Below are positions 19,041-38,378 of a DNA stretch of 64,000 bases, in pieces. The DNA lies in assembly GCA_964016885.1 (NCBI GenBank), contig OZ024748.1, positions 30,008,001 to 30,072,000 on the forward strand, read 5' to 3'. Position numbers and translations under genes: made by a program. Every line of letters begins with the position of its first letter. Position 1 is the first letter of the stretch. The notes under the pieces were generated by a model that worked only from the letters and a program-made list of their open reading frames with translations, was not told the DNA's origin and did not search any database. Source of the DNA: Eledone cirrhosa (lineage: Eukaryota).

Positions 19041-19193
19041 GTAATAATAATAAAATTGAAGACTAAATCCAAAGAGGGCTCGATGAAATATCCAGTTCTG
19101 CGTTTACAGATTGACTTTGTTAGTTTCAGAAGATCCCGTTAAGGGTGAAAGCAGCGATTCTTTGCTTAAACTTTAATCTGTTATTTAATAAAT
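19041..19193. mobile_element. Rearranged pLTR fragment of the PLE at 35-38 kb
   Basis: 19041-19084 is a direct copy of ~38205-38249. 19085-19193 is the reverse complement of ~38290-38400. Confidence 0.88.
19107..19180 (+). ncRNA. Variant hammerhead-like motif (CAGAAGA core)
   Basis: cagattga..agttt-CAGAAGA-t ccc gttaa ggg t-GAAA-gca..tgc-TT|aaact-ttaatctg. All three stems pair. Confidence 0.6.
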
Positions 19194-19729
19194 ATGTATA
19201 TATATGTATATATATAATATATGTATATATATATATATGTATGTATATGTATATATATAATATATGTATATATATATATATGTATGTATATATATATATA
19301 TGTATGTATATATATAATATATGTATATATATATATATGTATATATATGTATATATATATATATGTATATATATGTATATATATAATATATGTATATATA
19401 TATATGTATATATATATATATGTATATATATGTATATATATAATATATGTATATATATATATATATATGTATATATATGTATGTATATATATATATATAT
19501 ATATGTATGTATATATATGTATGTATATATATATATATATGTATATATATGTATATATATATATAGATAGATAAATATACACGGGTGTGTATGATTGTGT
19601 ATAGAAGATTATATTAATAAGAGGAATTCCAACTTTGTCTGATTTACTCGTTTTATTTACAATCCTTTAAAATTTATAATGGTATTATAATGAAATAGTA
19701 TGATAGAATATTAAATGTTAAGTGTTAAT

Positions 19730-19768
19730 TGAATAAGTACTTTCATGCTTTCGCAATCTTCAGGTTCA
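19730..19768 (-). ncRNA. Minimal type I hammerhead-like motif in a ~230-nt solo island
   Basis: Minus strand: tgaac-CTGAAGA-t tgc gaaa gca t-GAAA-gtac-TT|attca. Palindromic stem III. One mismatch at the base of stem I. Confidence 0.68.
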
Positions 19769-19978
19769 TAGTGTGTGGTGACAGTCACGTTTGCAATTTT
19801 CAACTGTGTATATATATATATATATGTATATATATGTATATATATAATATATGTATATATATGTATATATATAATATATGTATGTATATATATGTATATA
19901 TATAATATATGTGTATATATATATATATATATATGTATATATATATATGTATATATATATGTATATATATAATATATG

Positions 19979-21087
19979 TCATCATCATCATCATCATCAT
20001 CATCGTTTAACGTCCATATTCCACGCCTGCATGGGTTTGGACGGGAGTTTTCCCACTTTAGGCAAGAGTTGTCTTGCTCGCATAGGACTGTCTGGCGGGT
20101 TTTCTACGGCTGGATGCCCTTCCTAACACCAACCACATTTACAGTGTGGAACTGGGAGGTTTTTACCGTGTTACCTACACGGCCACATTACAGCGTGGAC
20201 TGTGTGTTTTTTTGTAGTGACACCTACGCGACCTCATTTGTTTCGGGCTGGATGTTGTGACACCAACATAACTTTACATTGAAAGAGGTGGTGTCGATGA
20301 GGTGGGGGTAGTGGGACGGGGGTGTATTTTGTTAGAGGTGCCTACTGACTGTAGTAGGTTTCACTTTGTACTTAGGTAAGGCGGGTCTTCTCTATTACTG
20401 TGTAGCGCCAAAGATCTTGGTCCAGTGACATTGTCTTGGAGAGGTCTAAGTGTGTGAGGTTGGAATTTATTAAGTCGTCCCAGGTTTTACTGGATCTGCC
20501 TACTCCGTGGCTACCGTCTATTTTTATTGCCCTGCACTTTTTTATACAGCTGTCGTCTTTCATGCGCATCACATGACCATATCAACGTAGTCTTCTCTCG
20601 AGTAAACAAAATTTGATCCCTCATATTTCTAATTTCTCCCTTAGTTCGTTTATGCTTTGCCGTTCACGTATATTACTATTACACATCCAGCGGAGCATGC
20701 ACGCTTCGTTTCTCACCAGTCTGCGTATATCCTCTGCGCACAATGCCCAGGTCTCACTGCCATGCAACATTGCTGTTCGTATGCAGGCATCATACAGCCT
20801 GCCTTTCATTTTTAGAGAGAACCCTTTAGCGGCCAATAGTGGTATAAGCTCTCTGAACTTTTTCCATCCCGTTCTGACTCTAGCTACTGTACTTTCAGAG
20901 CACCCTCCCCACACTGCTGATTTTATCACCCAGGTAACGGAAGCTGTCCACTATTTCTATAGAACCCTCTGCGCAATTGAAAGAGCTAGTATTTTGTGGG
21001 CACTTGCTGCTACTTATTGCACCAGAGCACCGGCCACATGTAAAATCTGTGTTCTTAGTTAGCTTACCTGTGTGATGCACCCATACT
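19979..21087 (-). mobile_element. 5'-truncated RTE LINE, family B (frameshifted)
   Basis: [38 protein letters not shown]. ~390-nt 3' UTR and (ATG)n tail. Close relative of 45075-46547. Confidence 0.92.
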
Positions 21088-21105
21088 TATATATATATAT
21101 ATATA

Positions 21106-34953: not shown

Positions 34954-35161
34954 TAGTATTAGTTATATTATTTATGGTTATGTAAATACAAAACCTTATG
35001 CACTTATAAGTATTTTTTATACACACCCTAAATAGTGGTAGGCAGTAATTTATTACTACCTTATTACCAGTAAGTTAAGTAGCTCAATGTAAAAACATCA
35101 GATGATTTACAGAGCAGTTATATGAAATATAAGAATCAAAGAACTGTTCAAAACATTATTG

Positions 35162-35208
35162 TGCTTACAGCTGTTTCCTCCAAAACGAGGTTTGGATTCT
35201 TCGGAGCA
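35162..35208 (-). ncRNA. Variant hammerhead-like motif (CCGAAGA core) in the PLE3 3' end
   Basis: Minus strand: tgct-CCGAAGA-a tccaaa cctcgt tttgga g-GAAA-cagctg-TA|agca. Palindromic stem III, GUA site. Confidence 0.68.
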
Positions 35209-38200
35209 ATTTATTAATGCATGGACAGTTATATGACCTCCTTTTCAGCCAAGAGACATACCGATACATATGCAAATATTGTGGGTCAACATTCGTTACA
35301 GAATTTAGAGTGGCAGTACACACTTCGAGATTACATTCATATTAAGAGGTACAATCAAAAATACAGGTTAAAATACAACATGTTGTATTTTAACGAAGAT
35401 AATAAGTCATATGTGGAGCGTGGAGAACAATAGCATGCAAAGACAAAACCACGTAAATGGTATAGCAGAAATCGTAGACTAAAATTCTAACTAGGAGACC
35501 AAATGAATCTCCGCTACAGAGTTAAGAACAAAGTAAATAAATACAATACAGAAGTAATAGAAACAAATAAATACATACACGCAAACAGATACTTACATAC
35601 ACAAGCATACGCAAAACATTACCATGGGTATACAAAACCACGCACATATAAATATGTGTGTGTGTGTATGCTTGTGTACAAATAAATAAATAATTATATA
35701 AACGTATATAAGTAAATAAAAACGTATATAACAAGCGCACACGCATACCTACATATAAATACACGAATGTTCGGAGACGTAAGTCAACTAAAACAAGAAG
35801 TACACATATACACACACCCACCATACGTACGAACCTGCACACTCACGCGGACGCAAAACTCCCGTATACACATAGCCAAACCCTAAATACCGGAATATGT
35901 AAAAATTATACGTTATAACAGTCAAATATACGTACGAGAAGGTATACATACCTTCACAAAACATACGGGTAATATATACTTACCTATACAAATAAGTAAA
36001 GGAATAAACAAAACATATACTTAGCTCCCACATCAAGACGTAAAATATCCACGTATAGATCGTGGAAAGTTTTGTGCAATTTATGTTTACAAGCCAAAAT
36101 TGCCTCAGATTTTTTGTTTAAGATGTGGTCTGTAGCGTAGAGTATTTCCAGGGCCTCAGCGGCGCAGAGGTCACATGGTCTTTTATTTCCGTTATACGAT
36201 CTAGCCCTAGCTAGGATCTCCCAGTGTAACTTATATTGGGTGTGGTTGTCTTTTAGACTCCAGATATAAGCTGAAAGTGACGTCATATTCCTTCTTAGAG
36301 GGTAACGAAAAGAATGGGTATGCATGTAAAGACGCTGCTTGAAGCTATTGGCGATTAACCCTATGTAGGCCCTACGGGACGTGGGTGTTACAACCTTACA
36401 TTTGTAGACAATGTTACTAGAGAGGCATTTCCCGGATAGGGGGCAATCAGCCCGATTCCTACAATTACAGTTAGTACTAACTACAGGGTTGCACGTGTTC
36501 CTACGGCTAGGTAGTTTAGCTAAATTTGAAGCTGTGATGTTATGTGCAAGGTTAGGAGTCGTAGAGTAAGAAATTTTAATAGTATTTCTATTAAAAATTT
36601 TACTATATTTATGTGTAGGGGTAAAATGCTTTGTAATAAGGGAAAGAAAGATCTTAGCTAATGGTGTGGCCACCTCCATATTATATGGTGGGTTAAACCA
36701 ACAAATGCGACGGGATCTATTTCTTCTTGGTCTATTTTCGTACTCTGTATATGCTACCTTATCGACAAATCCACTTCGAGCAAGAGCTTCATTGTAATAA
36801 GTGGAATGGTCGTTGAAAATGCGCTCGTTGGTGGAAAGACGGGAAAGCCTCAACGAAACGTTTCTTACCAGGTTCTTGGTTATGCTGGCAGGATGGTTGG
36901 AATGCTTACTTATGTAATTAAGCGTATCATTCGGCTTTCTATACGGGTAATACAACCCATTCAATAAATTGAGGGTAACGTTGAGGTAATTAACGACCGA
37001 GAGATTGGCCTCAACCTGTATAGAGAGGTTGAAGCCTTTAAAGAAGGCTGTGAGTTCTTTTCTGAACCTGTCGCAAGCACGAGGTCCGCACTTAGTCATG
37101 GTCAAAAGACCATCGTCACGGTACAAACCACCGCCCGCGTTGGGGAATTCGTCCTTGATAGAGAAAAGAAGGAAAAGGCCAATAAGATCAGTAACCTCCG
37201 CAGAGTCACTGGCGCCCATACTCACGTCGAATGGGGTACTATTGGATTTTTTAATCCAAATAGAGTTGTCGAAATTAATCACTGACTTTCGGGCATTAAG
37301 GATGACATCAACTTCAAAATCCTTAACCACTGTGAGTGTTTTAGCGAAATTGATAGCTCTAAGGAGAAGTGGTAAAGTGATGGAGGAGTAGTAATTGTTG
37401 ATGTCGAATTGGATAAAACGGCAATGTTCCTTGTTACATATGCCGTTGAACCAATCAATCACCGCGAAAGAATTGTTCCACAGTGCGAGAGGGGCCAAAC
37501 TTCTAATTTCAGGTATAATTCTATCAAGAATCGTTTTACTCAGTCTACCTAAATCGGACTTCGTAGGGTTAATAAGCCGAATAGAGGGGTTGTTCGGAAA
37601 ATTGGATTTGTGATCCTTCAGGGTAAAGTGGGGAGAGATAGGGTCCAGAGGTTCGGTCCGGTCCAGGATGTTGAGATCAGATGTGATTTTAAACCCAGCA
37701 TCGTTGATTTCATTGATGACGCACCGATTAGTTTTACGGTAATCCTTAGTTACAGCATTATGTAGTAGTTGATGGTAAGTACTGCGCTCCACTTGATATA
37801 GGTTGCCAGTTTTGTCGGAATGGACGTGCACGGCGTTAGAATCCTTAATAGAACGAATTCTATTCTTCAGGTCTTGCTGGAAGGAATTGCTCCTATTCCG
37901 AAATTTGATATTCCGAATGAGTTCCAAGACATCATTTTTCGAAGGGTAGCAATGCTGGGTTCCACGGAGGGTTATTATAAGTTTTAAATCCAAATTTATC
38001 CTGTTTGTTGTCTGCTTTTCGCGGATTATCGAAATAAAAGGCACGCCAACGCAACCTTTTAATGAACGCGTCTGTTTTCTGTATCAGGAGTTTTAGGTAT
38101 GTTTTCCTGCTTGGTACGGGTATGTTCTTTGTAGAAATATTCAGATGTTGTTTCTGCATGATGAATATAAGTCAGTAGAGTGCTCAACTGAAGGAGCCAA

Positions 38201-38304
38201 ATAGTAATAATAATAAAATTGAAGACTAAAATCCAAAGAGGGCTCGATAAGGAAAATATATATCAAATATATAAGAACCGTAGAGCAAATATTTATTAAA
38301 ATAA

Positions 38305-38378
38305 CAGATTAAAGTTTAAGCAAAGAATCGCTGCTTTCACCCTTAACGGGATCTTCTGAAACTAACAAAGTCAATCTG
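38305..38378 (-). ncRNA. Variant hammerhead-like motif (CAGAAGA core) upstream of the PLE3 ORF
   Basis: Exact reverse complement of 19107-19180. Lies ~150 nt 5' of the ATG in the element's sense orientation. Confidence 0.62.

Follow-up and report, generated by a model that had tools for sequence, protein, structure and literature searches.

A family-wide adenine at core position 4 in a hammerhead-type motif of a high-copy Penelope-like element from Eledone cirrhosa

The window analyzed here, 64,000 nucleotides of the Eledone cirrhosa assembly (contig OZ024748.1, positions 30,008,001 to 30,072,000), is animal DNA rich in (TA)n and in fragments of LINEs (long interspersed nuclear elements); it also contains at least four open reading frame (ORF) remnants of Penelope-like elements (PLEs). 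One PLE ORF, at 35984..38159 on the reverse strand, has a single frameshift, in an A run near 37935, and is flanked by two unrelated hammerhead-type motifs: motif A (38304..38379, reverse strand) before its start and motif B (35162..35208, reverse strand) after its stop. Motif A is of type I and was delimited by a descriptor search, fold analysis, sequencing reads and a clade covariance model. Read on the reverse strand, it consists of a distal stem I of 9 bp, a 7-nt bulge, a proximal stem I of 5 bp, the core C3-A4-G5-A6-A7-G8-A9 (38358-38352), a U.U mismatch at 10.1-11.1, a stem II of 3 bp, GAAA, and a stem III of 4 bp with a 7-nt loop, followed by the triplet CUU; the predicted cut is after 38318. 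Compared with the canonical core, C3 U4 G5 A6 N7 G8 A9...G12 A13 A14, it departs solely at position 4, and 10 of the 11 invariant core letters are kept together with the NUH triplet. As described below, A4 is the state of the whole CAGAAGA family and not a private mutation.

The ORF starts 199 nt past C3 of motif A. The region between them (38201..38303, reverse strand) contains two preferred 3' ends of family copies, at 38289 and 38201, which were located from reads. Upstream of motif A lies the variable 5' part of the terminal repeat (38380..38493, reverse strand), recognized from read variants and from the divergence of other copies beyond approximately 38487; by analogy with what is described in PMC6765202, this part is likely to bear a promoter. 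Self-comparison identified a partial tandem copy of the 3' part of the ORF still further upstream (38494..38943, reverse strand), which is 98.9% identical to 36409-36858. On the other side of the ORF, a GT-rich 3' untranslated region (UTR; 34955..35983, reverse strand) contains motif B and ends in a long (TA)n array.

In PMC8557442, the Hydra clade is characterized by DKT, RW[K/R], CxCX5C, CxxC and CxH, with no CCHH, and by its protein motifs the element belongs to this clade. A PLE-type reverse transcriptase (RT) and, at the C terminus, a GIY-YIG-like nuclease lie in the single ORF, with YRDD at residue 321 and the nuclease motif at 558-575. DKT, in place of DKG, is found at residue 90, and RWR in the frame preceding the frameshift is a conservative change of the RWK present in most aligned relatives. 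The CxCX5C linker, CxxC and CxH are present and CX2-5CxxC is not; the lack of CCHH is deduced from a nuclease motif with one Cys. Insertion into (TA)n also agrees with the clade: the loose ends at 38201 and 38289 enter (TA)n, as do the flanks in the window. Homologues of the ORF at E<=1e-30 numbered 1431 among the 8000 candidates scored, a Pfam scan of the ORF gave no match, and no relatives were found in viral contigs. Relatives L078-L090 stem from bins of bacterial genomes whose source was animal hosts, and contamination by the host is the most likely reason for their presence there. A non-LTR (long terminal repeat) retrozyme was considered and rejected, as the copies of motif A in the window are dispersed or linked to an ORF and form no tandem head-to-tail units.

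A hammerhead descriptor with position 4 left free was applied to the window. It recovered CAGAAGA at 19127 (forward strand) and 38358 (reverse), with identical cores, CCGAAGA at 35204 (reverse) and CGGATGA at 21409 (reverse), all with stem II, GAAA, stem III and NUH; the first-pass annotation had described the same three motif types. Stem I has 5, 5, 4 and 0 pairs, respectively, the motif at 21409 being without the 5' strand of this stem. The second copy of motif A (19106..19181, forward strand) lies within a short insertion and matches the first at 108 of 109 letters in the self-comparison. The motif at 21349..21409 (reverse strand) is a diverged, 5'-truncated relative, with 53 of 68 letters matching and a local alignment that begins at G5. 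The first-pass statements that the 19-kb and 38-kb motifs are identical copies and that the 21-kb motif is a diverged relative of the 38-kb one were thus borne out. At 10.1-11.1, the first pair of stem II, U.U stands at 19127 and 38358 and A.G at 35204; the cleavage-site triplet is CUU in motif A and GUA at 35204. Motifs with U4 were also found in the window, at 39808, 49565, 26533, 27756 and 19763. In 200 block-wise dinucleotide shuffles, 0.01 non-U4 sites with at least four stem I pairs were expected per window; three were observed, two of which (19127 and 38358) are copies of one element.

Over 35040-39900, none of the non-U4 motifs scored against Rfam up to an E value of 10, and the sole score there was for Hammerhead_1 at 39802-39846 (31.7 bits, against a gathering score of 34). 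Standard models therefore miss such motifs, as the first-pass annotation had expected of standard descriptors. Across the whole window, the best 150 of 394 Rfam rows were microsatellite noise alone. A covariance model was also built from 37 hammerheads of relatives; its alignment shows strong covariation among rows that were chosen by a descriptor already requiring those stems. This clade model gave weak matches, of 18.8 bits (E 0.005) for 35204 and 16.0 bits (E 0.038) for 19127 and 38358. The missing Rfam matches, the weak clade-model scores and a predicted minimum-energy fold other than the hammerhead are what would be expected if the motifs were chance look-alikes with no hammerhead homology. 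However, the excess of three sites over 0.01, the clade-typical position and U.U mismatch of motif A, and variation that preserves its pairs speak against chance, and because of position and conservation this explanation is largely refuted and considered extremely improbable.

Position and mismatch were judged against 90 loci of relatives, whose best protein segments are 37-46% identical to the ORF. The position-4-free descriptor gave 99 matches in 67 of these loci, 71 of them distinct, compared with 0.7 per shuffled set. Position 4 was U in 70 of the 71 motifs and C in one (L011), with no purine. Searching the loci with the clade model gave U4 in 114 of 115 matches and one gap; since that model was itself built from U4 motifs, the free-position count is preferred. 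The 5' hammerheads of relatives lie mostly ~170-225 nt before the ORF start, and 30 of the 71 motifs have U.U at 10.1-11.1. Because motif A shares both the position and the mismatch, it is regarded as the hammerhead homologue of the element. Neither U.U nor U17 can be taken as a sign of decay, both being common in the clade.

Motif A also differs from its relatives outside position 4. It has G15.2-C16.2 where 69 of the 71 motifs have C-G, and its triplet is therefore CUU, which occurs in 0 of the 71; the A15.1-U16.1 pair and H17 are nonetheless retained. CUU is a poor cleavage triplet. Stem III is longer, with 15 letters between GAAA and U16.1 against 2-8 in relatives, and stem I runs for nine further pairs beyond the 7-nt bulge, a feature that the first-pass annotation had not reported. 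Other core variants were seen among the relatives: two with U3-A8, one with G3-C8, one in which A6 is followed by an insertion, and the single C4. They are located at L042:1931-1980, L049:2393-2437, L047:4044-4087, L050:2571-2625 and L011:2928.

Whether A4 belongs to the family or to one copy is answered by reads laid on 38150-38500 at 80% likeness, which leaves out copies less alike than this, with a variant threshold of 8%. Four runs were used: X1 (organism A, 20108 contigs, possibly the sample of the window itself), X18 (organism A from a separate study, 15338 raw restriction-site-associated DNA (RAD) reads, the depth of which does not equal copy number), X5 (organism B, 29 contigs) and X6 (organism C, 6 contigs). 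Organisms B and C are either close relatives or mere carriers of DNA like that of A. Twelve other runs listed as containing parts of 35040-38450 do not enter the analysis, and the listing included no RNA run, which does not bear on expression. Position 4 corresponds to 38357, which is T on the forward strand, and no run has a listed variant there. The tallies of T>A, T>C and T>G in each run are fully accounted for by the listed rows 38189, 38219, 38293, 38441 and 38452, so that no letter other than A4 reaches 8% at 38357 in any run; the depth at this position is ~5,000 reads in X18. The same count shows no variant of the core A letters in any of the four runs, and none of the core G letters in X1, X5 and X18, whereas the invariance of C3 and the stems rests on the table keeping its best-supported rows. 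A4 is thus the state of the CAGAAGA family, and the refuting outcome named in the first-pass annotation, a U4 consensus with these copies as private mutants, did not occur.

The core and stems are nearly invariant, unlike their surroundings. From 38294 to 38365, a single variable site is listed, 38348, where C is replaced by U in stem II in 637 of 6149 reads (10%) and a U.G pair is kept. In the bulge, two letters differ in 72% and 61% of reads, respectively, and numerous sites of the upstream flank vary at 50-70%. As reads pile up more deeply on the motif, the count was limited to sites with at least 600 variant reads; variability then affected 1 of 57 positions that are core or paired, compared with 12 of 101 in the upstream flank (Fisher p 0.033), and 1 of 72 in the motif compared with 19 of 209 in both flanks (p 0.031). 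No two-sided, compensatory stem change was seen within the family in the four runs, because the stems hardly vary. The conservation of stems and core within the family agrees with the earlier view of a tolerated or structural variant and not decay.

This conservation could also arise if one master with a damaged ribozyme had been amplified without any need for cleavage, the sequence being uniform through recent descent or homogenization beside an RT start. Among the X1 contigs, 6129 of 20108 are at least 99% alike, short copies raise the depth over the motif and dilute variants, and very high copy numbers are also attained by Naiad PLEs, which lack canonical hammerheads. However, another 6362 of the 20108 contigs are less than 95% alike, both flanks of motif A vary, and variants in 60-72% of reads lie 8-35 nt upstream of the core with no linked core change; in addition, the changes at 21409 avoid the core and pairs. 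Such hitch-hiking is considered unlikely.

A further possibility is that the core overlaps a splice acceptor, in which C3-A4-G5 after a U-rich tract serves as the CAG and the ribozyme tolerates the cost. The tract upstream of this CAG is the most pyrimidine-rich of those before five nearby AGs (9 of 13), and the Penelope intron of Drosophila virilis is described as ending at helix I (PMC4209133). The margin is trivial, however, the other AGs having 6-8 of 13, and a UAG lies 6 nt upstream of the CAG. Among relatives, YAG is barely more common beside C3 than further up (25, 22, 17 and 10 of 67 in successive windows), and a GT-AG skip was found in 0 of the best 15 of 74 joints, in runs that are of DNA alone. 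As it also leaves the conservation of stems II and III unexplained, this overlap is very unlikely to account for A4.

Between G5 and the last letter of the proximal stem I, a stretch of 44 letters, the diverged copy at 21409 and motif A differ at seven places: N7, 10.1, two C-to-U changes and three loop letters. The change at 10.1 turns U.U into A-U, and the two C-to-U changes leave G.U pairs. All nine compared core letters are spared and every pair is kept, which random placement achieves in 0.3-1.4% of cases (simulated P 0.003-0.014); on these grounds the copy looks like a member of a second constrained subfamily. Its C3 and G4 adjoin a (CA)n/(TA)n flank. As the alignment starts only at G5 and these two letters abut microsatellite, G4 is either element or junction sequence: read most simply, it would be an A4-to-G transition within the A4 lineage, and it may instead be junction sequence.

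Motif B, which lies 780 nt past the ORF stop, has a CCGAAGA core, A.G at 10.1-11.1, a 6-bp stem II, a palindromic stem III and GUA, the last two as in the clade. It occurs once in the window and shows no sequence kinship with motif A; that the two could be copies of one terminal repeat was rejected, as there is no A-to-B match among the self-BLAST rows covering the region. The C4 core most likely represents an independent and less drastic instance of something already known and is a candidate family variant, whereas the CAGAAGA variant is real and family-wide. The argument of the first-pass annotation that the same position had changed in three ways is therefore not supported in that form: with G4 junctional and in the A4 lineage, and C4 seen once in an unrelated hammerhead, at most two independent events are left, and three independent substitutions were rejected. 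Its preference for a tolerated variant or structural element over random decay survives through the constraint on the CAGAAGA family, without the three-way argument. Loci of relatives that show both ends usually have the same motif before the ORF and again after it; this copy, with two unrelated hammerheads flanking its ORF, is unlike them and is a candidate for either a two-module unit or a chimera. The A.G mismatch at 10.1-11.1 is common to 35204 and the U4 motif at 49565 and is found in 0 of the 71 motifs of relatives; it is possibly a second local variant.

The reads also indicate how copies are made. In X1, X5 and X18, loose ends enter (TA)n at 38289 and 38201, that is, 29 and 117 nt beyond the predicted cut and 42 and 130 nt ahead of the ORF. 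By analogy with PAc, the Poseidon element of Anolis (Frangieh et al., 2024; PMC11167929), they are read as internal starts of reverse transcription. Toward the ORF start, the depth in X18 drops ~30-fold (~250 versus ~7500 reads), and many read joints are inversions. The short PLE insertion in (TA)n at 19042..19191 (forward strand) has this form: an inverted piece of ~43 nt (matching 38206-38248) is joined to a sense piece (matching 38401-38293), and each piece has its outer end close to one of the two family 3' ends. The copy at 19127 has the sense orientation within an apparent single long intron of the host. Two in-phase exon-like pieces, 1557-1646 and 57672-57749 (forward strand), lie ~56 kb apart, and their placement suggests that all four motifs are within one host intron; the exons are putatively RasGEF1-like, and neither Pfam nor the PDB of solved structures returned a match for them.

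From these observations, motif A is interpreted as the terminal-repeat hammerhead of a high-copy Hydra-clade PLE in which A4 is the family state; the fold is likely kept by selection and likely braked, so that the RNA would be a slow, perhaps protein-assisted cutter. This is the favoured reading of the sequence, and it is considered about as likely as not. Transcripts would start in the repeat upstream of motif A, and RT would begin internally, at the two sites downstream of the motif, and copy uncut RNA into (TA)n, the outcome being many short insertions that bear the motif and few copies linked to an ORF. In relatives, the brake would be the tiny palindromic stem III, which needs a dimer, and metazoan PLE hammerheads are described as slow and dimer-dependent (PMC4209133). 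The longer stem III and extended stem I of motif A would permit folding as a monomer, and the brake would have moved into the core, as A4 together with the C16.2 that gives CUU. With slow cutting, the template and the mRNA cap would be preserved, as would host pre-mRNAs with intronic copies, and cutting would perhaps be restricted to the state bound by the element protein. The PAc hammerhead is reported to be cleaved only with protein, and its cleavage to be dispensable for insertion in vitro (PMC11167929). Among the variants covered in PMC3088659, U4C is natural in a viroid that stays viable and functional, and U.U is the best-tolerated mismatch at 10.1-11.1.

Several points weigh against this interpretation. 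Read depth does not change abruptly at the predicted cut (7721 versus 7448 reads in adjoining bins); templates are therefore mostly uncut, as in PAc, and a slow ribozyme is not distinguished from a dead one. In a deep mutational scan of another hammerhead, all single and double mutants of the CUGA turn were low in activity, except for a C3-G8 swap, with no second-site rescue in the data described (PMC9901934), and because of this A4 may abolish cutting. All three helices of motif A can form and variation preserves their pairs, but the predicted minimum-energy fold differs; in the ViennaRNA ensemble, the full hammerhead fold has a share of ~0.0001 with either A or U at position 4, the pairing of the proximal stem I is 0.08 and that of stem III 0.34, and a competing helix in which G12-A15.1 are hidden gains weight with A4 (0.40 versus 0.02 with U). 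At 16.0 bits, motif A is 2.5 bits above a likely chance site (13.5 bits) in the clade model, and 21409 was not reported by this model in the window search. Furthermore, statistical support for the constraint is modest (p ~0.03) and comes from sites that are not independent of one another. Loops II and III vary as little as the core, a pattern that sequence-specific binding of a protein would explain equally well, and the read argument draws on 40 of the 51 rows of the variant table.

The same evidence bears on the reading that motif A does not cleave at all and that a hammerhead-derived fold or sequence has been kept as a recognition site for the RT or endonuclease, positioning the two downstream RT starts. 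The near-inactivity of CUGA mutants in the deep scan (PMC9901934), the inactive pairing of A4 with U11.1 that is favoured in ViennaRNA, the absent depth step, the two 3' ends just downstream and the block 38294-38365, with one listed variable site and its loops included, all fit this reading; hammerhead mutants of PAc still insert (PMC11167929), and a non-catalytic role has already been proposed for telomeric PLEs (PMC6431247). However, G8, G12, A13, A14, A15.1-U16.1 and H17 are kept across a relative diverged by 22%, which exceeds the obvious needs of a binding site, and PAc templates that start at +20, past C3 and G8, are still used (PMC11167929). The U4 kept in 70 of 71 relatives also places the clade as a whole under a catalytic-type constraint. 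A non-cleaving recognition site is held to be the main alternative, tentative and somewhat improbable. A broader proposal, that the purine-4 hammerhead is a non-cleaving or protein-switched fold that serves as an RT landing site and is selected across subfamilies and species, is likewise rather doubtful, though possible.

The role of PLE hammerheads is itself debated: they have been regarded as processors of RNA, as landmarks for RT or as parasites of the element (PMC8557442; PMC6431247), and in the one in vitro system cleavage proved dispensable (PMC11167929). Publications already cover PLE hammerheads as such, core variants shared by a whole family (U3-A8), U4C and a role of the fold that is not catalytic. 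The Hydra-clade hammerheads of PMC8557442, which include Hydra-1_Obim of Octopus bimaculoides, belong to elements with the protein motifs and (TA)n targets seen here and resemble motif A in being of type I, in their place in the terminal repeat and in their frequent U.U and common U17. The Hydra rows of File S2 in that work all have CUGA (26 of 26), having been found with a descriptor that demands it, together with C15.2-G16.2 and a short stem III, and the published Octopus member has a canonical core. Motif A is unlike these rows in A4, in G15.2-C16.2 (CUU), in its longer, non-palindromic stem III and in its extended stem I. The PLE hammerheads of Cervera and de la Pena (2014; PMC4209133) are also of type I, lie in terminal repeats and occur mostly as dispersed solo copies; low activity is expected for them, with an occasional family-wide core change (U3-A8). 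As described there, that change is a compensating pair swap against a CUGANGA consensus, whereas in motif A an unpaired letter of the U-turn has become a purine with no known compensation.

Natural variants with lowered but retained activity, including the viroid U4C and U.U at 10.1-11.1, are given by Perreault et al. (2011; PMC3088659), and motif B is of this kind; A6C is likewise a rare natural core change that lowers activity without abolishing it (PMC7151607). The passages of these two papers that were consulted, figures aside, list no A4 or G4 variant, and the variants there concern single RNAs rather than a high-copy genomic family; matches to U4G in PMC7151607 proved to be artefacts of core numbering. 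No natural A4 or G4 hammerhead family was found in the literature, searched largely as open-access text without figures. A CYGANGA descriptor is already in use (PMC13481778), and the word 'ribozyme' does not occur in a 2026 repeat annotation of Octopus vulgaris. PAc provides a close parallel for copying: its hammerhead lies near the start of the ORF and is followed by two internal RT starts, its targets are rich in A and T, and uncut RNA is the main template, as read here. It is unlike motif A in having a canonical core that cleaves with the help of protein, in belonging to another clade and in that its RT starts lie inside the ORF and not before it (PMC11167929).

That a successful family has a different, fixed letter where one is believed to be required for catalysis, yet keeps the fold intact, amounts to a natural experiment that parts cleavage from structure, and a purine-4 core would be a natural addition to hammerhead biochemistry. 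Descriptors requiring CUGANGA or CYGANGA would undercount such motifs in animal genomes. If the broader proposal holds, purifying selection maintains a natural 'pseudo-ribozyme' here, entire high-copy families escape hammerhead surveys, and the spread of short copies in very large numbers was made possible by relief from the cutting of host pre-mRNAs.

Other hammerheads in the window have U4. Three more 5'-truncated PLE copies, at 46487-49700 (forward strand), 23430-26625 and 27600-30051 (reverse strand), have 3' UTRs of ~0.9-1.2 kb and carry U4 hammerheads at 49565, 26533 and 27756. The motif at 26533 lies within an inverted duplicate, the partner of which, near 23521, has C3 replaced by U. 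Folding predicts a GCUC/GAGC-closed hairpin at three places, downstream of 38304, 35160 and 49622 and ahead of the 3' ends of the elements; being common to three unrelated hammerheads, it is a candidate RT-start signal. A short insertion between microsatellites at 19734-19770 (reverse strand) has a CUGAAGA motif with a clade-typical stem II and a reduced stem III and is the second-best match of the clade model, at 23.9 bits. A short (TA)n insertion at 39660-39890 (forward strand), with a canonical minimal type I hammerhead at 39802-39846, is a candidate solo terminal repeat or retrozyme monomer. Beyond it, a 5'-truncated LINE ORF at 39867-43154 (forward strand), which we take to be CR1/L2-like, has RVT_1 and ~790 codons without a stop; among the matches listed for a LINE protein of the window, the highest identity is with a protein of Argonauta hians, 63% over 83% of the region, a hint of an octopod host. 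The window ends in a long tandem array with a 24-nt unit, at 59100-64000.

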